Under the pieces are notes generated by a model that saw only the letters and a list, made by a program, of their open reading frames with translations, was not told the DNA's origin and made no database searches. From contig CAXXKT010000003.1 of the NCBI GenBank assembly GCA_963662405.2, positions 128,001 through 192,000 of the forward strand: a DNA stretch of 64,000 nt, read 5' to 3'. This stretch comes from Syntrophales bacterium. GTDB lineage: Bacteria; Desulfobacterota; Syntrophia; Syntrophales; UBA2210. Of the stretch, positions 2,370 through 51,580 are shown in pieces. Numbering within the stretch: position 1 is the stretch's first letter; the number at the start of each line of letters is the position of its first letter. The translations under genes were made by a program, and so were the position numbers.

Positions 2370-3305
2370 TCAAACAGCAAGTCTGAACTTTTCATATCTC
2401 CGTTCTAATAGATTGGGGTCGGGCCAGGCGTTTGAGGATCGTGGGAGTATGATTTTCTTCAGGTGCATTCCCTGGAGTCCATGGAGCAGCATGGGGCCGT
2501 CTTTTTCTTTCAGGATATCGTCTCGAACTTCGATGACGTAGTCGGGTCGTATCCCGATCATGAAACGGTCAAAGGCCGCATGGTGGAATTTGCAGAGGGC
2601 AACACCGTTATTCACAATGGGTTCACCGTCGGGCTCTCCATCAGGGATGATATGTGCCGCATCCAAAAGTTCCAGATGTTTGAGACGACAAAAAGCGCAC
2701 TGCTCCCGATATGCATGCAGCACCCGCTCGCGGAAGCCGCGTTGGTGTAATCTCTGTTTGACGGAGGTTGTGATATACAGTCTGCGGATGTCTGAATCCG
2801 TTTCCGAGATTGGCGGAGCGCAGTCTTCGGAATCAAAGTATTGATTCACTGTTTTATAATCATCAACGGCAACCGTGAACGTCAATTTCTTCGGATCATC
2901 TCCTACAATATATACAGGCCATGCGGCCAGATATTTGCCCGGCACAACGCTGTGGAAGTAAATGAGCGGAATATTGTGGAGCATAGCATTTCGAAGCCCT
3001 ACATTTGCACGGTGGCGTGGATTGGTCCCTCGATACCTGTATAAAAGGAGTCCTTCCGGTGTAAACCCATCATCATAGTGTCCGGATGTTGTTGTCGTAA
3101 TCGAAAGGGGATATTCGGGAAGTATCTTTGGCTTAAAAATGCCTTCTGGGGAAACGAGAGAAATTCGCTGATCTTCAAAAACAAATCCCTGCGCAAGGAT
3201 TGTTCTCTGAAGCACATCGCCGTGAAGGTTGACCTGTTCGGATAGCCACGCGAAAGCTGCAATGCGTAAACGCCTATCCAAGTCTTGTTCAAGATTGATG
3301 CGCAT
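2370..3305 (-). CDS. HNH endonuclease with N-terminal SRA/PUA-like domain (putative modification-dependent restriction enzyme)
   Basis: RLHQRGFRERVLHAYREQCAFC...LDAAHII...NGVALCKFHHAAFD HNH_2-type motif; N-terminal YDDG...YRYRG...N..LRNAM..NIPLIYF resembles SRA; alternative TTG start at 3317. Confidence 0.8.
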   Translation of the reverse strand: MRINLEQDLDRRLRIAAFAWLSEQVNLHGDVLQRTILAQGFVFEDQRISLVSPEGIFKPKILPEYPLSITTTTSGHYDDGFTPEGLLLYRYRGTNPRHRANVGLRNAMLHNIPLIYFHSVVPGKYLAAWPVYIVGDDPKKLTFTVAVDDYKTVNQYFDSEDCAPPISETDSDIRRLYITTSVKQRLHQRGFRERVLHAYREQCAFCRLKHLELLDAAHIIPDGEPDGEPIVNNGVALCKFHHAAFDRFMIGIRPDYVIEVRDDILKEKDGPMLLHGLQGMHLKKIILPRSSNAWPDPNLLERRYEKFRLAV

Positions 3306-3365
3306 ATAATCAATCAAGGTTTGTTATTGTTCATTTATAAAAAAGAGTTTTTCCATATTATCTTT

Positions 3366-5057
3366 TTATTTTCTAAGTCTTGCCTTTTTAGCTTTTACAA
3401 TAATTGATGCAAATCCAATGGCTTTTTCCAAACCATCTTCCTCTGCTGCATAACTTAAGAGTTGTTTTCCTATATCCTTTTCATTGAAACCATTCTTTAT
3501 TATGTGATCGGTTATTCTATCAAGGGTTCCTTGTTCAAGAGGCAAATTTGTTTGCGTTTGTTTTTGTGGTCTGGTAGGCCAAAAATGAGGTGTTTCATTG
3601 ATCAATACACCTTCGCTTTTCGTAAAAGTATCTTTTAGTTGCATGCTTTCATCCTCAATCCCATTTGGGGGCACACTTTGGGGGGATATGTTTGAAAGTT
3701 TCTCACGATGTTTTAACAAAAGTGTCTGGTTAAAAGAAGCTTTGTAAAAACGCCAATATTGGGAGCCCGTAGCATTTTTCTGTGTAATCGCTTCACCTAA
3801 TGGATTTATAATTCCCAAACCGTAAAGTGCTACTTCTTTATTGTTTAATTGTCCGACAAAATCAATTGTTGATTTTGGCAGATTCCAGTGCAAGAGGTCA
3901 GGGTAAAAAAACTGAGGCTTAGGTCTCCCACAACTGATCTCATATAGCCTTTCTGCCTGTGAAACAAGATAGTCATAATCGAGAACCCTCTGAGGAGGTT
4001 CACTGTTACTGTAGGTTCCTAATATTGCGCCAGCCATCGTTGCAATGGTATCGGTATCACTATCGAGAGTATTGGCACATATTTCTATGCCTTTCGCTGG
4101 ATCTCCTGAAAAGAAATAAGCGATGTAAGTGGCTAAAAGAGCGGTCTTAGTAGCTGATCCACGTTTTGCAGGATTAAATGCATCAATGTTTTCCGCTATT
4201 GAGCGATATCTTTCCTCTTTGTCCCTTTCTTCGCGAAGTAAACCAATCCCCGTTTCCTGCAATATCTTGTTGGTCGTTTTGATATCCCCCATCATCTCGT
4301 CGATAGTATCTTCTACGGCACTTTCCAATTTCGTTTGAGCTTGTTTTTCCCAAGAGGGAAGCCATATATGATTTAGAAGCTTATCTTCTTTGCAAACATT
4401 AACAATTAATTTTGCTTTAGTTAGAATCTTATCCCAAATATCTGGGGGAGGACACTCCCCTCCAATCAATGCCTGACGTAGAATCAAACCATGGAATACT
4501 GCACCTACCCAGCCGACAGGATGTCCATGGGTAATAATTGAATCTCTTATAATTTCTCTAATTAATGCTTCGTCTGATAAAGCACTTGACGCCGTCCATA
4601 CATGAGGCTGAATACGCATTGCAGCGCCATTACCTCCAACATCAGTATAACGATGTGTTGGGGTTTTAAAAAAGTTAGTATTCCACTGAACCGTCTTCTT
4701 TTTTAAAGATTCAGCCGCAGCTTTCGTACCTTTGCCCATCCCCAGACCATACGCAAGAAAGACGGGTATTTCAATTTTAGAAAACGTCTCAAAATCGAAT
4801 TCCCCATCTTTTCTTATGCTACGACATACTGCCAATCGTAACTGGGTATCATCCGAATAAACACCTTCCGGAAGTTCAATTGAAACACCGTATTGCCCTC
4901 CAAGCTTTCGCCTCCATCCAATAAGTCCTTTCACACGACCAAGTCCGCGTGTTCTATATTTAAGCCTTTTTACATCACTAAGCTCCGTGATAAACCCTAA
5001 GGCATCACCATATGCAGCCCAAAGCATTGAATTTTTAATTGATTCGAAAGTATTCAT
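3366..5057 (-). CDS. ADP-ribosylglycohydrolase (ARH/DraG family) with ~190-aa C-terminal extension
   Basis: AAYGDALG, YSDDTQL, GNGAAMRI, ITHGH, DTDTIATMAGAILG motifs. Confidence 0.9.
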   Translation of the reverse strand: MNTFESIKNSMLWAAYGDALGFITELSDVKRLKYRTRGLGRVKGLIGWRRKLGGQYGVSIELPEGVYSDDTQLRLAVCRSIRKDGEFDFETFSKIEIPVFLAYGLGMGKGTKAAAESLKKKTVQWNTNFFKTPTHRYTDVGGNGAAMRIQPHVWTASSALSDEALIREIIRDSIITHGHPVGWVGAVFHGLILRQALIGGECPPPDIWDKILTKAKLIVNVCKEDKLLNHIWLPSWEKQAQTKLESAVEDTIDEMMGDIKTTNKILQETGIGLLREERDKEERYRSIAENIDAFNPAKRGSATKTALLATYIAYFFSGDPAKGIEICANTLDSDTDTIATMAGAILGTYSNSEPPQRVLDYDYLVSQAERLYEISCGRPKPQFFYPDLLHWNLPKSTIDFVGQLNNKEVALYGLGIINPLGEAITQKNATGSQYWRFYKASFNQTLLLKHREKLSNISPQSVPPNGIEDESMQLKDTFTKSEGVLINETPHFWPTRPQKQTQTNLPLEQGTLDRITDHIIKNGFNEKDIGKQLLSYAAEEDGLEKAIGFASIIVKAKKARLRK

Positions 5058-5075
5058 TATTGCTCCCTGTTAATA

Positions 5076-5708
5076 TTAGAAAAGCTCTCTCCGTACTTCG
5101 CATTCTATATGGTTCCAATCCCTAAATAATGATTTTATACTGTCAAACGCATTGGCATCATCGTCATTTGCTACATAAGCCTTATTAAGGTAGCGTAGAG
5201 ATACTTCTCTCGGGTAAAGAACTTCTGCTTGATTACAAGTCGGTTGATTATCAGACAAAGATGCCGGACGAGTGATGCCGTTTCCATACCATTTGACTAT
5301 GTTTGGAGCAAACATTGCCTCCAGACCTACAGAGCCTTGATGGCGTTCAACACCACTATACATATTGTTCGTGGTGGTAAAGTATACGCCATCGTGCGCG
5401 CAAATTTCCGGAGAAAAAGATAGGATACACCACCACCCATCTTCACGCGCATGCCAGTTGCCGGCAGCAATTCCAAAAAGGTGGCGATTGACTGATGTAA
5501 TCGATAAATTTACATAATCCCACCATTCTTTATCTCTTTCTCGGTCCGCACAGTTATATTGATAGATATACTCGAGATAGTCATCTTCTGCTAGAAGGTT
5601 ACGAGCTTTCAAAGAACCAGTAGCCAAAATACCAGTAACACCTTTATTTGTTGTAAAATGAAGGATTTCTTTTATTTTCCGCTTTTTTATTATTTCTTGG
5701 ATAGTCAT
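5076..5708 (-). CDS. darT: DarT-family (DUF4433) DNA ADP-ribosyltransferase toxin
   Basis: LHFTT..GIL..GSL N-terminus, VNLSI, FTTTN, LEAMFA, PTCNQAEVL with the catalytic Glu. Confidence 0.8.
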   Translation of the reverse strand: MTIQEIIKKRKIKEILHFTTNKGVTGILATGSLKARNLLAEDDYLEYIYQYNCADRERDKEWWDYVNLSITSVNRHLFGIAAGNWHAREDGWWCILSFSPEICAHDGVYFTTTNNMYSGVERHQGSVGLEAMFAPNIVKWYGNGITRPASLSDNQPTCNQAEVLYPREVSLRYLNKAYVANDDDANAFDSIKSLFRDWNHIECEVRRELF

Positions 5709-7105
5709 AGTACAATATCGTTATAAGTATCTGTAGCCAAACAGTCAAGAAGGGAAGAGGGATCATCGGGCTTACACCCGAGAGTTACCGTCATGCGAGC
5801 TCTCGTTATTGTCATGGCAAGTAATCGTCTCAGATTTTCCCAAGAAGTATCACCATCTTCATCTCCATGTTGTGTAATTTCTTCATTCAATCCTAAAATG
5901 TATATGTGATCAAATTCCAATCCCTTTGCCGAATGCATGCTAATTAAGGCGACATTGTCATGCCCTTGAGGCCACTCTGACTGTCGGGTCAATTCGACAA
6001 AATTGAGTCCGTTTTTAGTTAAATCTGTGCGAAGCGTCTTAAACCATCCCCCAGCCTTGGGGTGAACAAATGCAACGGACTCTTCGTCAAGGTTAATATG
6101 TTTAATTTCTGAAATAACATAGGTACACTGTTCTGAATACCTGCCTCTAAGCAGTTTCGGCTTTGATCCATTGCGAAAGCACGAATCCAAATCTGGGATT
6201 GTACCATCGTCACTTAATTCCAAGCCCTCTAATAGCGGCTTTGCCAATCGACAGATTTCGATGGTGTTGCGGTGATTTTCTTCAAGACGAAAGCTGCGAT
6301 TGGGGTTTAATGTAATACCAACTTCACGCCAGGTCCAACCCCTCGGATAGATCTGCTGTGCCTTATCTAGAACAAATACCATCGTACACGGATCAGCAGC
6401 GTGTTGCTTAACAGCACGTATCTGGTTTGCAGAGAAATCTTGTGTTTCATCTGCAATAATAATATCGTATCTTATATTCTTCGGCGAATTGATAAGTTCT
6501 AGTGCTAAATCATTCCAGTCTCGGATTGCTTCCTCTTGTTTAAATTTTTCATAAGGTACTATTATTTCATTGACAAGGCGTTCTCTTGTTGCTTGTTCCA
6601 TTCGCGGCGTGATGCCACGTCCTTCCCGTTTAATGCTTAAGTATTTACCCCTATCATCAGGGTGGAATCGTCCCATACAGTATTCAACTTCGTCACACAA
6701 AAAATCTTCTGGCAGCCGCAACCCTTCATTGAACTCAATCAGCTTTTCCTTTTGCAGTCTATAGTCGATAATATTTTCTATACGTGTCAAATCCTTAGAC
6801 CATTTCCCGAACGTAGAGACATTGATTTTTACTCGTGAATGTGTCGTAATTTGTTGTTGTGCAAGATGGGAGATGTATCCACGGAGAGTCCTGTTATACG
6901 TAAGCACAAGAATCTGAACAGGGTTAGGGTTATCATTTCTTTCACGGTGGCGGAGCCAGAACTCCGACAGTTGCTTAAGCATCAGGAGTGCTGTAGTGGT
7001 TTTACCAGATCCGGCAGCACCGCGAATTACAGTAACACCTGCTTGGGGATTCGAAATAATAGGTAATTGTTCCGCAGTCGGAGGAACGTCAACTAGTACT
7101 TTCAT
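5705..7105 (-). CDS. Superfamily 1 (UvrD/Rep-like) helicase
   Basis: GAAGSGKT Walker A, LTYN motif Ia, DETQD Walker B, ENHRNT, HSAKGLEFD, ITRAR; ATGA overlap with the darT start. Confidence 0.9.
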   Translation of the reverse strand: MKVLVDVPPTAEQLPIISNPQAGVTVIRGAAGSGKTTTALLMLKQLSEFWLRHRERNDNPNPVQILVLTYNRTLRGYISHLAQQQITTHSRVKINVSTFGKWSKDLTRIENIIDYRLQKEKLIEFNEGLRLPEDFLCDEVEYCMGRFHPDDRGKYLSIKREGRGITPRMEQATRERLVNEIIVPYEKFKQEEAIRDWNDLALELINSPKNIRYDIIIADETQDFSANQIRAVKQHAADPCTMVFVLDKAQQIYPRGWTWREVGITLNPNRSFRLEENHRNTIEICRLAKPLLEGLELSDDGTIPDLDSCFRNGSKPKLLRGRYSEQCTYVISEIKHINLDEESVAFVHPKAGGWFKTLRTDLTKNGLNFVELTRQSEWPQGHDNVALISMHSAKGLEFDHIYILGLNEEITQHGDEDGDTSWENLRRLLAMTITRARMTVTLGCKPDDPSSLLDCLATDTYNDIVL

Positions 7106-7169
7106 TACATACTCCCACTCACATTTTTGGAGTTAGTTTTCTGCCATCTATCCGGTCTTTCAATACTCA

Positions 7170-7252
7170 AAACAAAAAACCCCGCTATCTCCTCTCAAGA
7201 AACGGGGTTTTGCATTCAATCACTACACGGTACTCTCCTGTGTCGGGTGTAG
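7170..7252 (-). promoter_or_regulatory. Conserved leader element copy A (hairpin, SD-GTG-TAG-TGA, intrinsic terminator) upstream of the helicase operon
   Basis: Stem CTACAC/GTGTAG around CAGGAG; terminator AAAACCCCG..CGGGGTTTTTT; TTGACA at 7318-7323 on the minus strand; resembles copies at 9101 and 50861. Confidence 0.55.
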
Positions 7253-7376
7253 ATGAAACATTTCAAACTTTTGAAAGAATCTGAACAGTTAGGGTAAAAT
7301 ACACCCTGAGACAAAAATGTCAAGTAATTTCGTTGTGAAGCTTAATGTGTAAAAAATATATAATCCATGGCCCGAT

Positions 7377-8774
7377 CTATTGATACTCCCCCATAAATTT
7401 TCTGTACTCCGGGTGTTCGACGAGCAGGCGGCCGCCGACTTCGATGAGTTTGTCGACTTGTGTTTCGCTGAGGTTGAACGATGTGGGGAGGTTGTTGAAA
7501 TATTCCTTTTCCTGTTCGTCGGCAAGGTTGTTGAAGCAGAGATCGGCGACGTAGAGTTTCAGGTTGCCTCCCGCGAGAGGTTTTATTTTGAAACCGTCGG
7601 TGCTGTGCCGGTCGAGGAGGTTCTGACAGGCGGTGGAGTATTGCTGGGCCTTGATCCGTTCGCCCATCGTCTCTTTGAACATCTCCACGGTCTCGAAGGA
7701 GTAGTTGTCCATGGAGACGGTGGCCGTCTTGAATCCCACCTTTGCCAGTCCCGGCGGGCTCTCTTTCCGGTCGCAGTTCTCGCGTTTCTCCGTCTTCGCG
7801 TTGACGACGATGACGAGGAGGCGCTTGATCTTCCCGTTGTTGATCTTCTGGCGGATATCGCTCCGCACGTACAGGTCGTAGATCGCCCGGAGGCCGAGGT
7901 TGTCGGCGAGCCCCCCGTCCATCAGGTGGAGCCAGGGGTGCGCCTCCCGGTCCGCGTAGATGGTGTTGTTGTATGCCGCCCAGTAGCGGCGCTGGTTGAC
8001 CCAGTAGTCCCGGAGGGCGAGGGTGTCTTCCGTATCGGGTGCGCAATCCGCGGCGCCGCAGTAGTTCGCGAGGCTGATGGGGGAGAGGAGAAAGGGAAAG
8101 GCGGATGACGCGGCGACGGCCCGGGCGACGGGGTAGGTGAGAAGGTCGGACCCGATGTAGTGGAACTGGCGGCCGGTGAATTCGAAACGGGCGCCGGTGG
8201 AGAGGTTGGTCGCGTTCATGATCAGGAAGGGGCGCGCGGCCTTTTCGGCCAGCGCGGCGAAGGTCCGGGATTGGAAGATGGTGTCGTTGTACAGTTCGGC
8301 GGCCAGGTCGATCCGGCTGAAGTACGGGGAGGCGAGGCGGACCCAGTTGTAGGGATTGGTGAGTTTGAGGAAGAGTTCCCGTTCGATGTTCCGGTTGAGG
8401 AATCTCTCCTCGAAATCGTCAAAGATCCGTTCCCCGAAGAGAGCGTAGTAGGCCCCCGTGAAGGACCCGCCGGAGACGGTGGATATGACGTCGACCTCGT
8501 CCAGGAGCGACCGGCCGTCGGGGAGGCGGATCTCCCGCATCTTCCTGAGGACGCCGTAGGAGAGGGCGGCCGCGCGGGTGCCGCCGCCGGAGAAGGTGAG
8601 GATGACGAAGGTCTCGTCGGCGTCGGCGGGTTCGGTGAAGCGGTCGAAGGCGTACGGGGCGGCCGGTTCGGGTTGCGTGAGGGGCTCGTTGAGCGGGTAG
8701 TGGGCGCAGCCGCACAGAACGACAACCGCGACAACCGCAAGGGCGAGACGGATGGTATGATTATACCTTTTCAT
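7377..8774 (-). CDS. Patatin-like phospholipase, predicted lipoprotein
   Basis: Signal peptide with LCGC lipobox; SGGGTRAA, STVSGGS nucleophile elbow, DGG motif. Confidence 0.88.
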   Translation of the reverse strand: MKRYNHTIRLALAVVAVVVLCGCAHYPLNEPLTQPEPAAPYAFDRFTEPADADETFVILTFSGGGTRAAALSYGVLRKMREIRLPDGRSLLDEVDVISTVSGGSFTGAYYALFGERIFDDFEERFLNRNIERELFLKLTNPYNWVRLASPYFSRIDLAAELYNDTIFQSRTFAALAEKAARPFLIMNATNLSTGARFEFTGRQFHYIGSDLLTYPVARAVAASSAFPFLLSPISLANYCGAADCAPDTEDTLALRDYWVNQRRYWAAYNNTIYADREAHPWLHLMDGGLADNLGLRAIYDLYVRSDIRQKINNGKIKRLLVIVVNAKTEKRENCDRKESPPGLAKVGFKTATVSMDNYSFETVEMFKETMGERIKAQQYSTACQNLLDRHSTDGFKIKPLAGGNLKLYVADLCFNNLADEQEKEYFNNLPTSFNLSETQVDKLIEVGGRLLVEHPEYRKFMGEYQ

Positions 8775-8979
8775 AACGCACCTCTTTGGGTGAGAGGGCA
8801 GTGGTCTCTTCGAGAATGATGAGGACCTCTTCCTCCGGCCGGAAATCGTATGGTGGCACCTGGAGGGTGACGAGATGGCTCCCTCCCTCCACCTCGATCA
8901 CCTCATTGGTCTTGCCCTGGGGTGTTTTGTCGATCATGACCTGCCGGTCGTCTTCGAACGTGACGATGAGATATTCCAT
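8761..8979 (-). CDS. Small acidic beta-rich (PEGA-like) protein, 72 aa
   Basis: MEYLIVTFEDDRQVMIDKTPQGKTNEVIEVEGGSHLVTL; AAGGAGG RBS; overlaps the patatin start. Confidence 0.6.
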   Translation of the reverse strand: MEYLIVTFEDDRQVMIDKTPQGKTNEVIEVEGGSHLVTLQVPPYDFRPEEEVLIILEETTALSPKEVRYEKV

Positions 8980-9100
8980 GACTGTCCCCTCCTTGTGTCC
9001 CGGCCATTCGGACATCCCCCTGATGTCCGACGGCGGTTTTCTCTGGGTAAGCGTTGAAGAGGCGTGCGGCGGCGCGTTTTCCTGAAAATCGGATCGCCCC

Positions 9101-9180
9101 AAACAAAAAAGCCCTCATTCCTCACGATCGAGAAACAGGGCTTTCGATGATCAGACCATAACCCCTCCTGGTTTACGGCT
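9101..9180 (-). promoter_or_regulatory. Conserved leader element copy B (hairpin, SD-ATG-GTC-TGA, terminator)
   Basis: Stem GCCGTAA/TTATGGT around CAGGAGG; terminator AAAGCCCT..AGGGCTTTTTT; TTGACA at 9238-9243 on the minus strand. Confidence 0.6.
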
Positions 9181-9254
9181 GTTCACAAATGCGTCTACAT
9201 TTCAGATTATAACTTTATGCCATAAAATAAACAGGATTGTCAATACTTACGCGA

Positions 9255-9341
9255 TAAATAGGGACAGCGCCCATTTTTCACTTTCCTCACAAAACGATAT
9301 TTTATTCAACCATTTACAAAAATGGGCGCTGTCCCTATTTA
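9255..9341. repeat. REPIN-like element 1 (24-bp perfect inverted arms, 39-bp spacer)
   Basis: TAAATAGGGACAGCGCCCATTTTT ... AAAAATGGGCGCTGTCCCTATTTA. Confidence 0.9.
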
Positions 9342-9512
9342 CCGGAAGCTTGCTTTTCCGATTTTTCTATAGTAGTTCACGTTTCGTGTTATTCGGTCAT
9401 AGAAAATCGCTTCCGCACAAGCACCCGAAGGGATACGATAATGCCCGGCAAATCGTGCTTCCAGTGAACAGCGAAAGACTCCTGAAAACAACCGTACAAC
9501 AAAAATAATTCT

Positions 9513-34604: not shown

Positions 34605-34798
34605 AGGAAAGCACAGGACGTGACCCATACCGTAAAAAAGGGTCTTCAGATCACGCGGCCGTCCCGATGACACCCGCGTGGTGACGTGGCTGGCTATGGT
34701 CTTTTCCATCATGCTCTTCGTCCGTTCCCTTCCTGTTCCTGCGTACCGCCGCCGTTTTTTTATTGACTTATCGAATCTGTTTTGTTTGAATCCATCTC

Positions 34799-34981
34799 GT
34801 TTCGGTGCCCGGAAGGGATTAAAAGGGAACTCCGTGTAAATCGGAGACGGGCCCGCCGCTGTTACTCTTCCCCATTCCACCGGGAGTGGGGAGTCTGATG
34901 GGCGTGAGGATGCCACTGTTGCTTTCCAGGGCAATGGGAAGGCGGTCCATCGGATGGAGAAGTCAGAAGACCTGCCGAAAC
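34799..34981 (+). promoter_or_regulatory. Cobalamin riboswitch 1
   Basis: AAAAGGGAA..GTGTAAATC..GCCCGCCGCTGT..GCCACTG..GGGAAGGC..AAGTCAGAAGACCTGCC; P1 GTTTCGG/CCGAAAC. Confidence 0.9.
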
Positions 34982-35046
34982 AAATAGCGGGTGAGCCGCG
35001 TGGACCACGGCACGCCTGAGAAGATAGATTCGTGGATAAAAATGGG

Positions 35047-35342: not shown

Positions 35343-35634
35343 AGAGGAGAAGACGATGGGCGAGTCACTGTTGGAAATCGATTTACAAAACCTGGATTTT
35401 TGAACCAGGTTTTCTCCTCAGCGGACCGGTTGATCCATCTGTACGAGGCGCATGATTCAGGGGGAAAGGGGTAAACAACCGCACCCGGGCGGAGGGATGG
35501 AACACCTGAAGGCGGGATGCGCATGACTGATAAGACACCGTTGAGAAATATGAGAATCAAGGAGAACCCGGCCATATCAACCGATATGCCGTCGGTATGT
35601 CTTTTTGCTCTTAAACAATAGAGTAAGAGAGCGT

Positions 35635-35771
35635 GATCAGGACACGGAAGACGGTGTAAATCCGTCGCGGACGCGCCACTGTAACTGACGAAAACCCATC
35701 ACAGTCACTGCCGTTTACCGGTGGGAAGACGGAGATATCTGAGGGGTCAGAAGCCAGGAGACGACCTGATC
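35635..35771 (+). promoter_or_regulatory. Cobalamin riboswitch 2 (metE leader)
   Basis: GGAAGACGGTGTAAATCCGTC..GCGCCACTGTA..GTCACTG..GGGAAGAC..AAGCCAGGAGAC; P1 GATCAGG/CCTGATC; downstream GTTGCTCCTTCA can pair with the metE SD. Confidence 0.85.
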
Positions 35772-35925
35772 GGGTGGAGTACGACTGTCTCGCGAACAGG
35801 CAGGAATGCGATCGGGTGTCGCCCGGCAGCGGCTTTTTGCCATATGAATTGCTGTGCTTCGTGCCGCGCTTTGCCGGACATGTCGTTGCTCCTTCAACCA
35901 TTACTGTGATGAAAGGAGTAACACA

Positions 35926-42227: not shown

Positions 42228-42301
42228 TGGCTGGGGGACAAGGATTCGAACCTTGATTGACGGAGTCAGAGTCCGCTGTCCTACCATTGAACGATCCCCC
42301 A
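42228..42301 (-). tRNA. tRNA-Gln(CTG)
   Basis: TGGGGGA acceptor, GCGGA-CT-CTG-AC-TCCGT anticodon arm, GGTTCGAATCC, encoded CCA; TTGACA-17-TATATA upstream. Confidence 0.97.
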
Positions 42302-42605: not shown

Positions 42606-45600
42606 ATGGATCGTTTAGCGAGCGTGCAGGACGGCTTCAGGTTGTTCCAAAGAAAATCGGAACTATCCCTGCCGATAATAATACTTACCATTGTCGTATC
42701 CCTTATGATTTTTTTCGGTAGTGCAGCCTGCGGGGGCGTGCATCCACCCATCTCACCCGTGGTGACAACGGACAAGGGTGACTATCAGCCCGGTCAGACC
42801 GCGATCATAACGGGTTCCGGCTTTCATCCGAGAGAACCAGTAAGACTTCAGGTCGTACATACCAATCCGGTCGAAAAGCCGGGCGCCGGTCATGAATTGT
42901 GGCATGTCGCTGCAGATACATCCGGTCGTTTTTCAAGTAGATGGTTTGTCAACCCTGACGATTCCCTGGGTGCCAGCTTCCTGTTGACGGTGGTTGGCGT
43001 CACCTCGGGTTTGTCCACGTCGACCACCTTTACCGATGCGGCGGGACCGCTGACCATCGCAGTCGGTTCCCAGCAGACCCTGTGGGTTGACGCCAACATG
43101 TGCAGCGGTGAGGGCCCACGCGGTGCCTGGCTCTCTTTCATCATTACCAATACCGGCACCGATCCCGCTACGGATGTTACCGTGACCTTTGCGGATTTTA
43201 CCGGAACGAACGCGTCATATTTTTCAGCCCCGGACGATCTGACACGGACCTTCAGCTCCATCGCGGCGGGAGCCGAAGAACCGGTCTATTTCTATGTCGA
43301 CTACTCGGAGGTCTGTACCCATTCCCAGGGGGGCGGGTCACCCTATGCCGGCTTTACGGCCGACTACACGGTCACCGCAACGGCAACGGGGCTCGTGCCT
43401 GTCGTGTACAACGGAACGGTGATTACCGATCAACTCCTCAACGCCAAGGCCGCCGGGCTGTCACTCAGCACGGTTCTGGGCTCGGGGTTTTATGTGGGCC
43501 AGTTATTGACCCAGACGGTTGCCTACCAGTTTGGAAACAACACCGATCTCTTCTTTCAACCGGCTGGTGAGGCGGGATTCGATGCTGGTTGTATCCGGCT
43601 GGTGGGGTCGGAGATCACCGGTGTCTCCGGGACCGTGTCGCCGACCCTCATCGGGTTGAAAGATCGGTTGTGGTTTCCCACGGTCAGTGTGCCGGGGGGC
43701 GGTGGGAACATCTACGTGACCTATACGTGGGAGATCCTCTGTGTCAACAGGGTCCAGACCCTGCACCCGTGGGCTGCGGCAAAGAGCGGAGCCAGGTACA
43801 AATATTCGGGATTTCAGTCATCGACGATCTTACCCGCCTCCGCTCAGGCCCTGACGGCGGATAAGTCGGTTTCCCCTTTATCGCTCGTCGACGATTCCGG
43901 GGGGGCGGTCACCTGGACCGTGACCTACTCGAACCCGGCGCCGGTGCCGTTACGTCTCTCGAAGATCACCGATGTGCTTCCCCCGTGCATGTCGATCAAT
44001 GATCCGGACGCGCCCGGGAGCGATGTAACGGCGGCAAATTCATCCGGCATACCCGCTGTCGACGCAACCGGCACTGTCGACTGGATCGGCAATGATCTGG
44101 GAGACAGCCCGAGCAGCACGTACCTGGTGCCGGCAGGGGGGACAACTGTCCTGAAATACACGACCAACATTCTCGGGTGTGCCTCCCCCGCCTCCTATAC
44201 AAACTCCGCGACGGGAACGGTCGGCGAAACGACCGTCGGCCCGGCCGCCGCTACGCTTGAAATCGGAAGCCAGCCGGCAATCACGCTGAGCAAGGATGCA
44301 AGTCCTCGGCTATACGGTACTCTCGGTGAGACGATCACCTATACCTATACGATTGTCAACAGCGGGAACGTGACGCTGGATGGGCCGTTCACGGTAAACG
44401 ACAGCAGACTGGGAACGATTTCCCTGTGTGGAAGCGGACCGATTCTCCCCGGAGCATCGACCTCGTGCACGGCCCCGTATCTCATAACACAGGCGGACCT
44501 TGATGCCGGGTCCGTCGTGAACACGGCAACGGCGTCCACGTTGTACAACGGTCAGACCGTCACATCCAATCAGGCCTTGGTGACTGCGGGGATGCTGAGG
44601 AGCGTCAAGAGTGTGACCGACGAGAACGGCGGGAATCTGGAGCCGGGGGACAGTCTTTTGTACACGGTGGTGCTGCAGAACCGGAGCGGTTATGCGGTGG
44701 ACGATCTGGAGCTGACGGACGTGATCCCGGCGGACACGACCTACATTGCGTCGAGCGTGACCCATCCCGGTGGGAGCACGGTGGTGAGCGAGACGCCGGT
44801 CTTGCACATTGAGGGTATCGATGTTCCGGCGCACGGACAGGTGACGGTGACCTTCCGCGTTGTGGTGGACAATCCGCTCCCGGCTGGAGTGACGCAGATC
44901 ACGAACCAGGGGACGGTATTTTACGACAGTGACGGGGACGGTACGAACGACTCGACGCAGCAGACGGACGGCGACACGGCGCAGCCGGGGGAGCAGTCGA
45001 CGGACATCCCGGTGACGGCGGGAGCGAACTTCGATGAGACGACGAAGGGAGTGGTGCTGCAGACGGATGCGGACGCCAACGGAGCGGTGACGCCGGGGGA
45101 CACGCTGCGGTACACGGTGGTGATTCCGAACACGGGTGATCAGGACGCGACGGGCGTGACCTTCAGCGATCCGGTTCCGGCGAACACGACGTACATCGCA
45201 TTGAGCGTGACGGCAACGGCGGGGACGCCGACCTACAATGCCGGACTGGACCGTATCGAATGGGCGGGAGACATAACCGCCGGTACGAGCGTGACGATCA
45301 CCTTCGACGTGACGGTGGACAGCGGTATTGTGGTGGGGACGGTACTCTCGAACCAGGGGACGGTGACCTACGATTCGAGTACACAACTGACGGACGGGGA
45401 TGTGACGGAACCGGGGCGGCAGCCCACGGACGTGACGGTAGGGGGGATGCCCGAGGGCGTGGCGATCAAGGGCGTGACCGACGAGAACGGCGGGAATCTG
45501 GAGCCGGGGGACAGTCTTTTGTACACGGTGGTGCTGCAGAACCGGAGCGGTTATGCGGTGGACGATCTGGAGCTGACGGACGTGATCCCGGCGGACACGA

Positions 45601-48600
45601 CCTACATTGCATCGAGCGTGACCCATCCCGGTGGGAGCACGGTGGTGAGCGAGACGCCGGTCTTGCACATTGAGGGTATCGATGTTCCGGCGCACGGACA
45701 GGTGACGGTGACCTTCCGCGTTGTGGTGGACAATCCGCTCCCGGCTGGAGTGACGCAGATCACGAACCAGGGGACGGTATTTTACGACAGTGACGGGGAC
45801 GGTACGAACGACTCGACGCAGCAGACGGACGGTGACACCGCGCAGCCGGGGGAGCAGTCGACGGACATCCCGGTGACGGCGGGAGCGAACTTCGATGAGA
45901 CGACGAAGGGAGTGGTGCTGCAGACGGATGCGGACGCCAACGGAGCGGTGACGCCGGGGGACACGCTGCGGTACACGGTGGTGATTCCGAACACGGGTGA
46001 TCAGGACGCGACGGGCGTGACCTTCAGCGATCCGATCCCGGCTAACACGACATACATTGCATTGAGCGTGACGGCGACGGCGGGGACGGCGACCTATAAC
46101 GCCGGTCTGGACCGGATCGACTGGACGGGGGACATAACGGCCGGTACGAGCGTGACGATCACCTTCGACGTGACGGTGGACAGCGGTATTGTGGTGGGGA
46201 CGGTACTCTCGAACCAGGGGACGGTGACCTACGATTCGAGTACACAACTGACGGACGGGGATGTGACGGAACCGGGGCGGCAGCCCACGGACGTGACGGT
46301 AGGGGGGATGCCCGAGGGCGTGGCGATCAAGGGCGTGACCGACGAGAACGGCGGGAATCTGGAGCCGGGGGACAGTCTTTTGTACACGGTGGTGCTGCAG
46401 AACCGGAGCGGTTTTGCCGTGGACGATCTGGGGCTGACGGACGCGATCCCGGCGGACACGACCTACATTGCGTCGAGCGTGACCCATCCCGGTGGGAGCA
46501 CGGTGGTGAGCGAGACGCCGGTCTTGCACATTGAGGGTATCGATGTTCCGGCGCACGGACAGGTGACGGTGACCTTCCGCGTTGTGGTGGACAATCCGCT
46601 CCCGGCTGGAGTGACGCAGATCACGAACCAGGGGACGGTATTTTACGACAGTGACGGGGACGGTACGAACGACTCGACGCAGCAGACGGACGGCGACACG
46701 GCGCAGCCGGGGGAGCAGTCGACGGATATCCCGGTGACGGCGGGAGCGAACTTCGATGAGACGACGAAGGGAGTGGTGCTGCAGACGGATGCGGACGCCA
46801 ACGGAGCGGTGACGCCGGGGGACACGCTGCGGTACACGGTGGTGATTCCGAACACGGGTGATCAGGACGCGACGGGCGTGACCTTCAGCGATCCGGTTCC
46901 GGCGAACACGACGTACATCGCATTGAGCGTGACGGCAACGGCGGGGACGCCGACCTACAATGCCGGACTGGACCGTATCGAATGGGCGGGAGACATAACC
47001 ACCGGTACGAGCGTGACGATCACCTTCGACGTGACGGTGGACAGCGGTATTGTGGTGGGGACGGTACTCTCGAACCAGGGGACGGTGACCTACGATTCGA
47101 GTACACAACTGACGGACGGGGATGTGACGGAACCGGGGCGGCAGCCCACGGACGTGACGGTAGGGGGGATGCCCGAGGGCGTGGCGATCAAGGGCGTGAC
47201 CGACGAGAACGGCGGGAATCTGGAGCCGGGGGATACGCTGTTGTACACGGTAGTGCTGCAGAACCGGAGCGGTTTTGCCGTGGACGATCTGGGGCTGACG
47301 GACGCGATCCCGGCGGACACGACCTACATTGCGTCGAGCGTGACCCATCCCGGTGGGAGCACGGTGGTGAGCGAGACGCCGGTCTTGCACATTGAGGGTA
47401 TCGATGTCCCGGCCCACGGGCAGGTGACGGTGACCTTCCGCGTTGTGGTGGACAATCCGCTCCCGGCGGGGGTGACGCAGATCACGAACCAGGGGACGGT
47501 CTTTTACGACAGCGACGGGGACGGGACGAACGACTCGACGCAGCAGACGGACGGTGACACATCCCAGCCGGGCGAACAGTCGACGGACATCCCGGTGACG
47601 GCGGGAGCGAACTTCGATGAGACGACGAAGGGCGTGGCGCTCCAGACGGACGCGGATGCCGACGGAGCGGTAACGCCGGGCGACACGCTGCGGTATACGG
47701 TGGTGCTGCACAACACGGGGAACGCCGACAGCGGTGTGGCAACGGTTTTTGCGGATCCGGTTCCATTCAATACGACCTATGTAACCGGGAGTGTAACGGC
47801 GACGGCGGGGACGCCCACCTACAATGCGGGATTGAACCAAATTGAGTGGACGGGTGATGTGTACGCGGGTGGTGCAGTAACGATCACCTTCGACGTGACG
47901 GTGGACAGCGGTATTGTGGTGGAACGGTGCTCTCGAACCAAGGGGCGATATACTACGACAGCAACAATGACGGGACGAACGACAGCACCCAGGAGACGGA
48001 CGGCGATGTGACCGAGCCGGGGAGGCAGCCCACGGACGTGACGGTAGGAGGGATGCCCGAGGGCGTGGCGATCAAGAGTGTGACCGACGAGAACGGCGGG
48101 AACCTGGAGCCGGGGGATACTCTGTTGTACACGGTGGTGCTGCAGAACCGGAGCGGTTATGCGGTGGCGGGTATCGAGCTGACGGACGTGATCCCGGCGG
48201 ACACGACCTACATTGCGTCGAGCGTTACCCATCCCGGTGGGAGCACGGTGGTGAGCGAGACGCCGGTGCTGCACATTGAGGGTATCGATGTCCCGGCCCA
48301 CGGGCAGGTGACGGTGACCTTCCGCGTCGTCGTGGACGATCCGCTTCCGGCGGGGGTGACACAGATCACGAACCAGGGGACGGTCTTTTACGACAGCGAC
48401 GGGGACGGGACGAACGACTCGACGCAGCAGACGGACGGCGACACCGCGCAGCCGGGGGAGCAGTCGACGGACATCCCGGTGACGGCGGGAGCGAACTTCG
48501 ATGAGACGACGAAGGGCGTGGCGCTCCAGACGGATGCGGACACGAACGGAGCGGTGACGCCGGGCGACACGCTGCGTTACACGGTGGTGATTCCGAACAC

Positions 48601-49459
48601 GGGTGATCAGGACGCGACGGGTGTGACCTTCAGCGATCCGATCCCCTTTAACACGACGTACGTCGCATTGAGCGTGACGGCAACGGCGGGGACGGCGACC
48701 TATAACGCCGGTCTGGACCGGATCGACTGGACGGGGGACATAACGGCCGGTACGAGCGTGGCGATCACCTTTGACGTGACGGTGGACAGCGGTATCACGG
48801 TAGGGACGGTGCTCTCGAACCAGGGGACGGTGACCTATGCTTCCGGGACACAGTTGACGGACGGAGATGTGACGAAGCCGGGGCGGCAGCCCACGGACGT
48901 GACGGTAGGGGGGATGCCCGAGGGCGTGGCGATCAAGAGTGTGACCGACGAGAACGGGGGGAACCTGGAGCCGGGCGACAGCCTCTTGTACACGGTGGTT
49001 TTGCAGAACCGGGGCGGTTTTGCGGTGGAGGGTATCGAGCTGACGGACGTGATCCCTGCGGACACGACCTACATTGCGTCGAGCGTGACCCATCCCGGTG
49101 GGAGCACGGTGGTGAGCGAGACGCCGGTGCTGAACATCACGGGCATCGATGTCCCTGCCCACGGGCAGGTGACGGTGACCTTCCGTGTTGTGGTGGACAA
49201 TCCGCTTCCGGCGGGGGTGACGCAGATCACGAACCAGGGGACGGTCTTTTACGACAGCGACGGGGACGGGACGAACGATAGTACGCAGCAGACGGACGGT
49301 GACACCGCGCAGCCGGGGGAGCAGTCGACGGACATCCCGGTGACGGTGTCGATGACTCTGATCCCGACATTGAGCGCATGGGGAGTGCTGCTCCTGGGAA
49401 TATTCTTGGTTCTGGCCGGGGTTGCGGCATTGGTTGTCAGGCGAGTTGATCAGGTATAA
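42606..49459 (+). CDS. Giant DUF11/isopeptide-type Ig-repeat surface protein with IPTL-CTERM, interrupted by a 1-bp frameshift near 47921
   Basis: ORFs 42606-48011 and 47927-49459 continue the same repeat; K..PGD.L.YTV..N..D.IP..NQG domains; DSDGDG Ca-binding-like loops; [12 protein letters not shown] tail. Confidence 0.85.
44613..49345 (+). repeat. Intragenic tandem repeat, 861-bp unit, about 5.5 copies
   Basis: Unit starts at 44613, 45474, 46335, 47196, 48080, 48941 (spacings 861, 861, 861, 884, 861). Confidence 0.92.
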
Positions 49460-50321: not shown

Positions 50322-50860
50322 CTCAAACTCCTTTGCGGGCGGATTCTAACAACATCTCTCCGGGAATGACAACAGAAAACCGGTGATCGACTGTTTTCTC
50401 CGGTCATCGAGAGATAGCGGCGACCGCGTGCCTCCCGGTTTTTCTCCGGCGCACGGGTCGGTTCTGGCGGCTTCTTGCAGCGGCTCTCCTCTTCTTGGAA
50501 CGTGTATCTTCGGAACGGCATACGAACACCGGAAAGCAGCAAGAAGACAGCACAAAAAACCAGTATCTTTTCTGCCGGCATCGTCGAATCATTGGCAACC
50601 GGTTTTCCCCGGATGAGTCGTTCCGCGGGTCCCTCTCAATCTTCATTCTTCCGCGAACGGTGTCGATCGCGTCCATTGTCCCACACCGTCTCGTCCGTCG
50701 CTGCAGAGACCGCAATCAGGGACCGGAACGCGCGTTACGGAACGTGAGAAGGGGGTATAAGCAGCTATTATTTTTCATGTATTGGCGCACTATTTCTTGA
50801 CATATGGGGGAAAAGAAGATAAGGGATCTATGAAATCTTTATAATTCGATGTGTTTAACC

Positions 50861-50944
50861 GGCTGTAACCAAAGGGGGGATTATGGCCTGACCATGCAAA
50901 GCCTTATTTTCTCGGGATAGGAGAGATAGGGCTTTTTTTGTTTT
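50861..50944 (+). promoter_or_regulatory. Conserved leader element copy C (hairpin, SD-ATG-GCC-TGA, terminator)
   Basis: Stem GGCTGTAA/TTATGGCC; terminator AAAGCCTTA..TAGGGCTTTTTTT; TTGACA at 50797; clearly similar to copy B. Confidence 0.6.
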
Positions 50945-51001
50945 GCCTGCCTGATTCATCGCCCGCCGTTACCGCTTAATTCGGAGAGAGAGGAACACGC
51001 T

Positions 51002-51580
51002 ATGAATGCATTTGACCTTGCATATGAGCATGATTCTGCGCTCCATGTCGTTCGTGAATGGATCGAAGCAACGCTGGACGAATACCGGAGCCAGGCCGTT
51101 CCCGTCAGTGATTTCGACTTTCCTCGGCTGCAGAAGGTGCTCCCCCCCGATCTTCTCAGCAGGGTAAAGGTGGTGGTTGTCCCGGGGGACGTTCCGCTGC
51201 CGCCATTGGACAGTATGGGCTTTCCTGAATTTACCCGTATGGGAAGCAGGGCCGCGGCAGGCGTAACGTATGAAGATACGTTCTTTGTCAACAACCGTTG
51301 CCGGACCGAGAGTCTCTGCTTTCACGAGCTGATCCATGTCCTCCAATGGGCCCGGCTCGGGACCGATCATTTCCTGGTTGCGTATGGTACCGGCCTGATC
51401 CAGCTCGGATACCGGAATTGCCCCCTGGAACGGATGGCATTTTCCCTCCAGGCCAAATTGAGCCTGAAGACACTCCCCGAAGATGTTGTCAGTTGGGTTT
51501 ATGAGAAGACCGATGCCGTCTGGGACCGCGTGACCTCGTTCCTGAACGAGGGGTCTCGGCAAAGAGCGGTGATCGGCTAA
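51002..51580 (+). CDS. Hypothetical HExxH (DUF4157-like) metallopeptidase-domain protein
   Basis: AAGVTY..FHELIHVLQW..GYRNCPLE..A. Confidence 0.65.
   Translation: MNAFDLAYEHDSALHVVREWIEATLDEYRSQAVPVSDFDFPRLQKVLPPDLLSRVKVVVVPGDVPLPPLDSMGFPEFTRMGSRAAAGVTYEDTFFVNNRCRTESLCFHELIHVLQWARLGTDHFLVAYGTGLIQLGYRNCPLERMAFSLQAKLSLKTLPEDVVSWVYEKTDAVWDRVTSFLNEGSRQRAVIG

Follow-up and report, generated by a model that had tools for sequence, protein, structure and literature searches.

Ribosome-occlusion attenuators are known from single loci such as ampC and pyrBI, and in the ampC leader the binding of a ribosome blocks the terminator. Excerpts of three reviews describe this leader as an attenuator with growth-rate-dependent expression (PMC3660660, PMC4811930, PMC9241650). 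According to excerpts of PMC4824070, the ribosome in E. coli represses a terminator almost completely when it follows a stop codon by a few bases, and terminators in the first 100 bp of an open reading frame (ORF) work, coupling being not yet set up there. Here we analyse a 64,000-nucleotide stretch of a Syntrophales genome (contig CAXXKT010000003.1, positions 128,001 to 192,000; hereafter the window), which carries three copies of a short leader with a promoter, a Shine-Dalgarno (SD) sequence followed by a tiny ORF (the minigene), and an intrinsic terminator. From its sequence features, we read this leader family, with a probability of about 0.5, as an occlusion attenuator of the ampC/pyrBI kind, in which a ribosome that is loaded in time would block the terminator.

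The three copies stand at the positions given by the original prediction, which was made from the window sequence alone, as confirmed by their sequence and by their scores against a homologue model of the family. Their parts are the following, in window positions.

7318..7323, minus strand: copy A, -35 box TTGACA, from the sequence and the family promoter pattern
7296-7301, minus strand: copy A, predicted -10 box TATTTT, 16-nt spacer to TTGACA
7165..7259, minus strand: copy A, leader, model score 45.5 bits; a weak hairpin covers the SD and start
7233-7239, minus strand: copy A, SD
7220-7228, minus strand: copy A, minigene GTG TAG TGA (start-stop)
7174-7211, minus strand: copy A, terminator with T-tract
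9238..9243, minus strand: copy B, TTGACA
9206-9211, minus strand: copy B, TATAAT, 26 nt from TTGACA, an atypical promoter spacing
9096..9191, minus strand: copy B, leader, model score 77.2 bits; a hairpin covers the SD and start
9162-9169, minus strand: copy B, SD
9151-9159, minus strand: copy B, minigene ATG GTC TGA
9105-9144, minus strand: copy B, terminator with T-tract
50797..50825, plus strand: copy C, promoter TTGACA, 17 nt, TAAGGG, matching the family pattern TTGACA-N17-TA
50850..50947, plus strand: copy C, leader, model score 71.7 bits; a hairpin covers the SD and start
50872-50879, plus strand: copy C, SD
50883-50891, plus strand: copy C, minigene ATG GCC TGA
50898-50939, plus strand: copy C, terminator with T-tract

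All three copies show the predicted TTGACA upstream, the complementary stems, the purine-rich SD and a terminator with a TTTCT arm, located 63-126 nt before a co-oriented gene. The common register RTG-NNN-TGA that had been proposed holds insofar as TGA is the third codon in all three copies; in copy A (GTG TAG), the second codon is already a stop. Copies A and B fold better than their own shuffles (z about -2.9), and copy C does not (z -0.39).

Searches for further homologues extend the predicted three-copy element to a large family. In the 3.8-Mb genome, a profile iterated from the three window copies recovers 56 family members at E<=1e-4, far beyond chance, since the best match in the reversed genome has an E-value of 0.55. 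Two models were used for the relatives: R1, built from 55 of the 56 own copies (the remaining one lacks a terminator), and the broader R2, built from 84 diverse copies. R1 matches 47 of 101 Syntrophales genomes and 12 of 151 genomes of the phylum, 10 of them outside Syntrophales, with up to at least 16 matches each, while R2 matches 65 of the 101 Syntrophales genomes; the per-genome counts of both models are lower bounds among scored candidates and not copy numbers. An exact pattern searched among GTDB genomes retrieves 35 loci, 28 of them in Syntrophales or Syntrophaceae, 3 in Deltaproteobacteria and 4 on short contigs of other taxa. These four near-perfect copies (L042, L045, L061, L062) lie on contigs titled Ca. 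Theseobacter, archaeon, Spirochaetaceae and Draconibacterium, and reflect either cross-phylum transfer or mis-binned contigs. Viral contigs gave 0 matches to one exact pattern, a type of search that diverged copies could escape. The leader family is real and is spread through the phylum.

The statement that the leader is no known riboswitch agrees with Rfam 15. At gathering score, the whole window yields only two cobalamin riboswitches (34786-34993 and 35621-35784, plus strand) and a tRNA gene (42231-42301, minus strand), all of them elsewhere in the window; positions 7050-9350 searched at E<=10 return chance-level matches only, and 14 loci including relatives return tRNA only. A literature search found no description of the leader family, with the supplements of RNA-motif surveys, which could hold an uncurated version, outside its range. 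Excerpts of PMC13285730 treat upstream ribosome-binding sites (RBSs) in Sinorhizobium and do not describe the family. The family is apparently undescribed so far, and the part that is likely new, judging from the architecture, is an occlusion-attenuator-like leader in the form of a dispersed multi-copy family, the kind of attenuator itself being already known from single loci.

Conservation was assessed on 132 distinct copies (54 own copies and 78 from relatives), leaving out two own copies without an anchor and one duplicate and re-anchoring six copies by hand. At the promoter, TTGAC(A/C), with one TCGACA, is followed by TA 17 nt later in 45 of the 56 own copies. Because other intergenic TTGAC sites share this spacing, with TA commonest at 17 nt too (203 of 683 sites, vs 67 at 16 nt and 88 at 18 nt), the family promoter looks like the sigma70 promoter of the organism. 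A T at the last -10 position occurs at 79 of the 203 intergenic TTGAC-N17-TA sites and at 5 of the 45 in the family; the sigma70 of the organism may tolerate a relaxed -10 box.

The ribosome site is the second conserved part. The start column holds 116 ATG, 8 GTG and 4 TTG (128 of 132 are start codons), a choice that parallels start-codon usage. With the canonical anti-SD sequence, SD binding reaches -4 kcal/mol or lower in 95% of copies and averages -8.3 kcal/mol, compared with -6.7 for 1199 genes. The SD and start lie 15-23 nt before the terminator stem. Most minigene ORFs contain 1-4 sense codons; the third codon is TGA in 99 of 132 copies, and where it is lost the fifth codon is often a stop. 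The distance from the end of the stop to the first C of the stem is 2-15 nt in 113 of 132 copies and 9-10 nt in 90. An SD and start 13-24 nt upstream accompany 46 of 52 family terminators vs 84 of 694 other terminator-like hairpins used as controls, and a stop at codon 3 is found at 36 of the 52 vs 1 of the 694. This lone control is itself a diverged family copy with ATG AAC TAA, located before an intact integron integrase gene.

The same arrangement recurs at a distance. Among 30 hits in other orders, the start lies 15-22 nt before the stem in 27 and a strong SD is present in 25; a strict window is satisfied by 18 of the 30, and by shuffles 7% of the time. The codons of these hits are unrelated, and 16 of 27 have their stop within codons 2-7, where TAA, TAG and TGA all occur. 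A further 25 R2 hits keep the start in 22 cases and the SD in 19.

Covariation, which had been suggested as a check, is clear in the terminator stem, where 93% of cells are paired and 11 of 14 pairs carry two-sided changes, a level reached by 0 of 500 shuffles; its predicted stability is about -19.5 kcal/mol. The SD-hiding hairpin of the original prediction is present in the three window copies and only partly kept across the family, with 79.6% of cells paired. For this first hairpin, the own partner strand is more stable in 19 of 32 sequence clusters and in 6 of 7 multi-member clusters, and RNAalifold predicts the terminator but not the first hairpin. Neither this hairpin nor a stop at exactly codon 3 is an invariant part of the family, since both vary. 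The sequences TGAAAT and TTTTTTGTT, the former proposed as a shared mark, were dropped as family marks as they occur in only 9 and 5 of the 54 own copies. Read from the alignments, the invariant core is a promoter, a ribosome site, a fixed distance and a terminator, placed before a co-oriented gene.

The next gene is co-oriented for 47 of the 56 own copies, as judged with a crude gene caller, compared with 53% for intergenic gaps. At least two of the nine exceptions have a real co-oriented gene behind them (HU and a CGGC-domain gene), and copy C is another exception. A promoter-like site after the terminator, on which the genes behind might have depended, is present in only 5 of the 47 co-oriented copies. 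Orientation and missing downstream promoters fit a leader better than a free small RNA. Together with the spacing of SD and start that is kept across the phylum, the orientation bias supports the cis-acting attenuator that had been proposed.

In the occlusion attenuator that we favour, the family promoter would fire and the RNA would by default end at the leader terminator. Translation would begin at the SD-start site, and a ribosome standing on codon 2-3 or on the stop would block folding of the terminator hairpin; by covering the base of the stem, this ribosome would allow read-through into the genes behind. The outcome would be decided by a race, in which fast ribosome loading or lingering at codons 2-3 or at the stop gives read-through, and otherwise termination follows. 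The weak upstream hairpin may slow ribosome loading and thereby set the basal leak. Because the peptide is irrelevant and the stop may move or be lost, the likely input would be ribosome loading or dwell time (initiation capacity, growth state, slow release) and not a single amino acid. One gate copied before many acquired genes would tie them to the translational state of the cell.

Several findings are consistent with this mechanism. The sequence holds the parts expected of an occlusion attenuator, namely a promoter, a leader terminator and a co-oriented gene without its own promoter. In a folding model, the terminator forms without a ribosome at a probability of 0.91, and a search for an RNA antiterminator found no pairing between upstream sequence and the 5' arm above that of shuffles, swapped partners or ordinary RBSs. 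Since the terminator dominates and no RNA antiterminator was found, read-through needs a factor, and the ribosome site is the one conserved binding site. Both the start-to-stem and the stop-to-stem distances lie within the ribosome-repressed range given in excerpts of PMC4824070.

Other observations weigh against ribosome occlusion. In a masking model, an initiating ribosome (0.93) or a ribosome at codon 2 (0.92) fails to lower terminator formation; only codon 3 in the P site lowers it, to 0.76, which places the geometry at the edge of the ribosome footprint. Coupling of transcription and translation in Desulfobacterota is an assumption, and B. subtilis is described as uncoupled in excerpts of PMC7819879. 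A hairpin-stabilised pause 11 nt before a Y/G in the 5' arm was dropped as a candidate, its pairing probability being only 0.17-0.19. The homologue models score the ATG and terminator sequence, and this ascertainment inflates part of the conservation. The 5' arm of the terminator, CCCYRTTTCT, is kept beyond what pairing needs, which fits a site recognised by a protein. Finally, positions +2..+4 pair with +10..+12 in 124-125 of 132 Syntrophales copies, and this small stem, found in 1 of 27 copies outside Syntrophales, may explain part of the ATG conservation.

A conserved 5' arm fits antitermination by a protein, and this is the main rival, although we consider it unlikely. An orphan UpxY-like NusG paralog would antiterminate in trans by loading at the leader and taking RNA polymerase past the terminator, perhaps recruiting the ribosome to the SD-AUG, and the copies would form an RfaH-like regulon of acquired genes. 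The paralog (167 aa; L170:1734-2237, G000:C1:1449233) is encoded directly behind ribD and is a second NusG-family gene of the genome, scoring above the UpxY cut-off (106.4 vs 100). Its neighbours are housekeeping genes, with no obvious target operon. Seven Syntrophales loci inspected show no polysaccharide family among the scanned neighbours, and ribD adjoins the gene in four. The paralog is present in 83 of the 101 Syntrophales genomes, with one match each at 50-85% identity, and the element is found in 58 of these 83 vs 7 of the 18 genomes without it (Fisher p 0.027, with related genomes not being independent). This suggests a link between the element and the paralog that is not obligate; a first set of genomes, chosen by element status, had seemed to show an obligate link, with copies in 0/7 genomes that lack the paralog, which the even sample of 101 genomes (7/18) broke. 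Excerpts of the literature further describe LoaP as reading through a leader terminator (PMC12691694), and RfaH as a stand-alone factor that is thought to recruit ribosomes (PMC7819879). Seven genomes, however, carry copies without a detectable paralog, among them one (G093) that is 99% complete with at least 9 matches, though draft genomes may miss a gene, and no copy was detected in 25 of the 83 genomes that have the paralog. In the 9 loci searched, the paralog gene has no copy next to it, the alignments show no ops-like or UNCG-hairpin element, and the paralog alone leaves the SD and the ATG/GTG/TTG pattern unexplained. By analogy, the NusG paralog and the ribosome could also act together on the leader.

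The remaining rivals are less likely than a protein antiterminator. A strong portable promoter with a leaky terminator and a ribosome site might act as an unregulated damper, giving a fixed low output and a safe platform for newly acquired genes, and spreading by duplication and mobile elements. This explanation would suit the recently dispersed subfamily that shares a further upstream module, entered by the insertion sequence IS110 at one site five times, as well as the copies that precede attI-like sites, the promoter modules that occur without a terminator and the lack of a single theme among the genes behind. A fixed leak, in contrast, needs no set distance between SD, start and terminator. 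The spacing is nevertheless maintained from order to order while the spacer sequence itself is unrelated, and stop codons turn up again in new places; we regard this explanation as doubtful. More improbable still are small RNAs of about 110 nt acting in trans, as a CsrA sponge or a ribosome decoy, with the genes behind transcribed independently. Each unit has a promoter-like site and a strong terminator, so that short RNAs are probably made in any case, and CsrA is encoded in the genome. The orientation bias and the scarcity of promoter-like sites behind the terminators argue against this, as do the 0-2 GGA motifs in 112 of 132 copies (at most one in 67), which leave little of the GGA-loop alternative offered by the original prediction. 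The csrA gene, moreover, sits in a flgL-csrA-fliW cluster, a type in which CsrA is controlled by the FliW protein. Least probable of all, and very unlikely, is an RNA switch of opposite sign, in which a free SD/AUG pairs with the 5' arm of the terminator and the genes are on when ribosomes fail to load, for example during phage infection. Complementarity between the first four ORF bases and the 5' arm reaches 94% of cells, vs 28-60% in slid registers, and when the upstream hairpin strand is blocked in the model, the ribosome site has paired with 54% of the arm by the time the 3' arm emerges. The resulting duplex, nevertheless, does not exceed in strength those formed with ordinary gene RBSs (-7.7 vs -8.05 kcal/mol), own partners do no better than swapped ones, clear two-sided covariation is missing, and the terminator wins without a ribosome.

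The genes behind the copies were examined by scanning 75 of 99 first and second ORFs against NCBIfam and PADLOC, and 53 ORFs against Pfam. A GC content below 0.45 is found for 19 of 47 genes behind copies vs 7% of 3208 genes. At E<=1e-20, 9 of the 75 ORFs match PADLOC, and by our reading seven of these are system-specific (Thoeris ThsB, Gabija A and B, PD-Lambda-5 A and B, PDC-S31 and PDC-M14A). Among 80 random control genes there are 4 matches, three of them generic (helicase, SMC-type ATPase and radical SAM) and the fourth itself behind a copy. Other genes behind own copies encode GGDEF and HD-GYP enzymes, a kinase, HU, MscS, transporters, secreted proteins, transposases and many unknowns. 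In relatives, the copies precede genes for Shedu, a KAP NTPase, a TIR protein and a methylase, and also for formamidase, carboxyltransferase and oxidoreductases. A regulon of defence genes only was rejected, as most genes behind are unknown or serve signalling, transport or metabolism. The proposed control of accessory or toxic genes stands in that defence genes are enriched, and needs correcting in that they are a minority. As far as annotation can tell, the family is a regulon of accessory genes with a defence share.

Within the window, the genes behind the three copies are as follows.

5705..7105, minus strand: UvrD-like helicase, gene 1 behind copy A (Pfam PF00580/PF13361)
5076..5708, minus strand: DarT ssDNA ADP-ribosyltransferase, gene 2 behind copy A (Pfam PF14487, E 3.5e-22)
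3366..5057, minus strand: ADP-ribosylglycohydrolase-family gene (563 aa), gene 3 behind copy A (Pfam PF03747)
2370..3317, minus strand: HNH nuclease, gene 4 behind copy A (Pfam PF13391)
8761..8979, minus strand: 72-aa ORF, gene 1 behind copy B, without a Pfam family
7377..8774, minus strand: patatin-like phospholipase, gene 2 behind copy B (Pfam PF01734)
51002..51580, plus strand: 192-aa gene behind copy C, without a Pfam or NCBIfam family

Copy A heads the DarT operon, as had been stated, with DarT as its second gene; the four genes for helicase, DarT, ADP-ribosylglycohydrolase and HNH nuclease span 2370-7105 on the minus strand. At 1e-20, PADLOC gives no match for the DarT, ADP-ribosylglycohydrolase or HNH gene. 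The usual partners of DarT are a macrodomain or NADAR protein, and the operon is possibly an unusual DarT system with the ADP-ribosylglycohydrolase-family gene in the place of the partner. Between the end of the patatin-like gene behind copy B and the copy A promoter there are 54 nt. Upstream of the copy B promoter lies a long inverted repeat (9258-9334) with arms AAATAGGGACAGCGCCCATTTTT and complement; short sequences resembling it occur near other copies, and contig breaks fall there. The window further encodes two large DUF11-repeat proteins of 1801 and 510 aa (42606-49459, plus strand), likely surface or adhesin proteins.

Integron parts and mobile elements surround several copies. With a strict pattern, an attI-like site is found within 40-75 nt behind four own copies (C1:236262, 245797, 306490 and 2668647; L003, L005, L026). 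Downstream of those at 306490 and 2668647 there are attC-like hairpins, and a PD-T7-4-like gene stands in the row behind the latter. The intact integron integrase gene (L171, G000:C1:2211783-2212934) is the one preceded by the diverged copy with SD, ATG AAC TAA and terminator; a second integrase (C1:30608-31553) is split by a stop. The 1.2-kb IS110 element has five insertions at the same short site (G000:C1:158540-159800, 164030-165271, 305115-306363 and 1415772-1417019; C2:343270-344515). This site marks where a conserved module begins, some 70 nt upstream of the family promoter, and three of the five insertions precede full copies. At G000:C1:442038 and C3:212121, an identical 26-nt sequence follows the T-tract and, at 442038, runs into an IS1595 transposase, which suggests from the shared sequence that IS1595 inserted at the terminator end twice.

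In these slow-growing syntrophic anaerobes, one such architecture is scattered ahead of dozens of acquired genes, anti-phage systems and integron platforms among them. Provided that the gate is regulated, it would let a cell keep a large set of foreign or costly genes quiet and switch them together without a DNA-binding repressor. The analysis also draws attention to the orphan NusG paralog of most Syntrophales, so far unstudied. A bolder and rather unlikely extension is a portable translation-sensing gate throughout Desulfobacterota. There, the ribosome-loading switch and the orphan NusG paralog coupling ribosome to RNA polymerase would form an RfaH-like master control, made of a minigene and a terminator, to which anti-phage systems, integron cassette rows and the integron integrase would be subject together with c-di-GMP enzymes and catabolic genes. 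Because the unit is small (less than 200 bp as a whole) and has a sigma70 promoter and an intrinsic terminator, the occlusion attenuator is easily testable in E. coli or in a cell-free system.

Compared with described leaders, the family shares single traits with several classes. BglG/LicT RAT and ANTAR dual-hairpin leaders, like the family, have a weak small upstream stem and a G-run able to pair with the 5' arm of the terminator. The RAT type was rejected, as the genome holds no CAT_RBD (PF03123; a control matched in 4 genomes) and the small stem occurs in 1 of 27 distant copies. For ANTAR, the genome gave no PF03861 match, in a search whose control matched nowhere, and no dual hexaloop was seen in the alignments. 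A leader peptide of the trp/his type was discarded because codon 2 and later codons vary freely and there is no antiterminator. CsrB/RsmY sponges resemble the family as short promoter-to-terminator RNAs with purine-rich loops; we rejected them because GGA motifs are too few here, Rfam gives no match, the orientation is strongly biased towards cis and csrA is arranged with fliW. The leaders of LoaP (dfn/mln), UpxY and RfaH/ops come closer (excerpts of PMC12691694 and PMC7819879): they too place an intrinsic terminator ahead of genes that are acquired or costly, and most Syntrophales have an orphan NusG paralog at hand. They differ in that no UNCG hairpin or ops is seen in the family and its paralog is not obligate, while LoaP leaders, in the same excerpts, are not defined by an SD and minigene.

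The closest likeness is to leaders in which the ribosome acts on the terminator itself. At pyrBI (pyrL) and tR2, as in the occlusion attenuator favoured here, a ribosome that is near the 5' arm or sits on it acts directly to repress an intrinsic terminator, without an alternative RNA fold (excerpts of PMC4824070). In those excerpts, the leader gene pyrL measures 135 bp and has a UTP-sensitive pause, whereas the family has a tiny ORF, no supported pause and no metabolite theme. E. coli ampC, like the family, places a start and a stop directly before the leader terminator; in the K-12 record, ATG TAA ends 3 nt before the stem, and copy A shares this start-stop. The ampC leader exists in one copy, lacks a purine-rich SD immediately upstream of its ATG and has its start 9 nt from the stem, whereas the family combines a strong SD with a start 15-23 nt from the stem, is unrelated in sequence, and reaches up to 56 copies per genome before unrelated genes.

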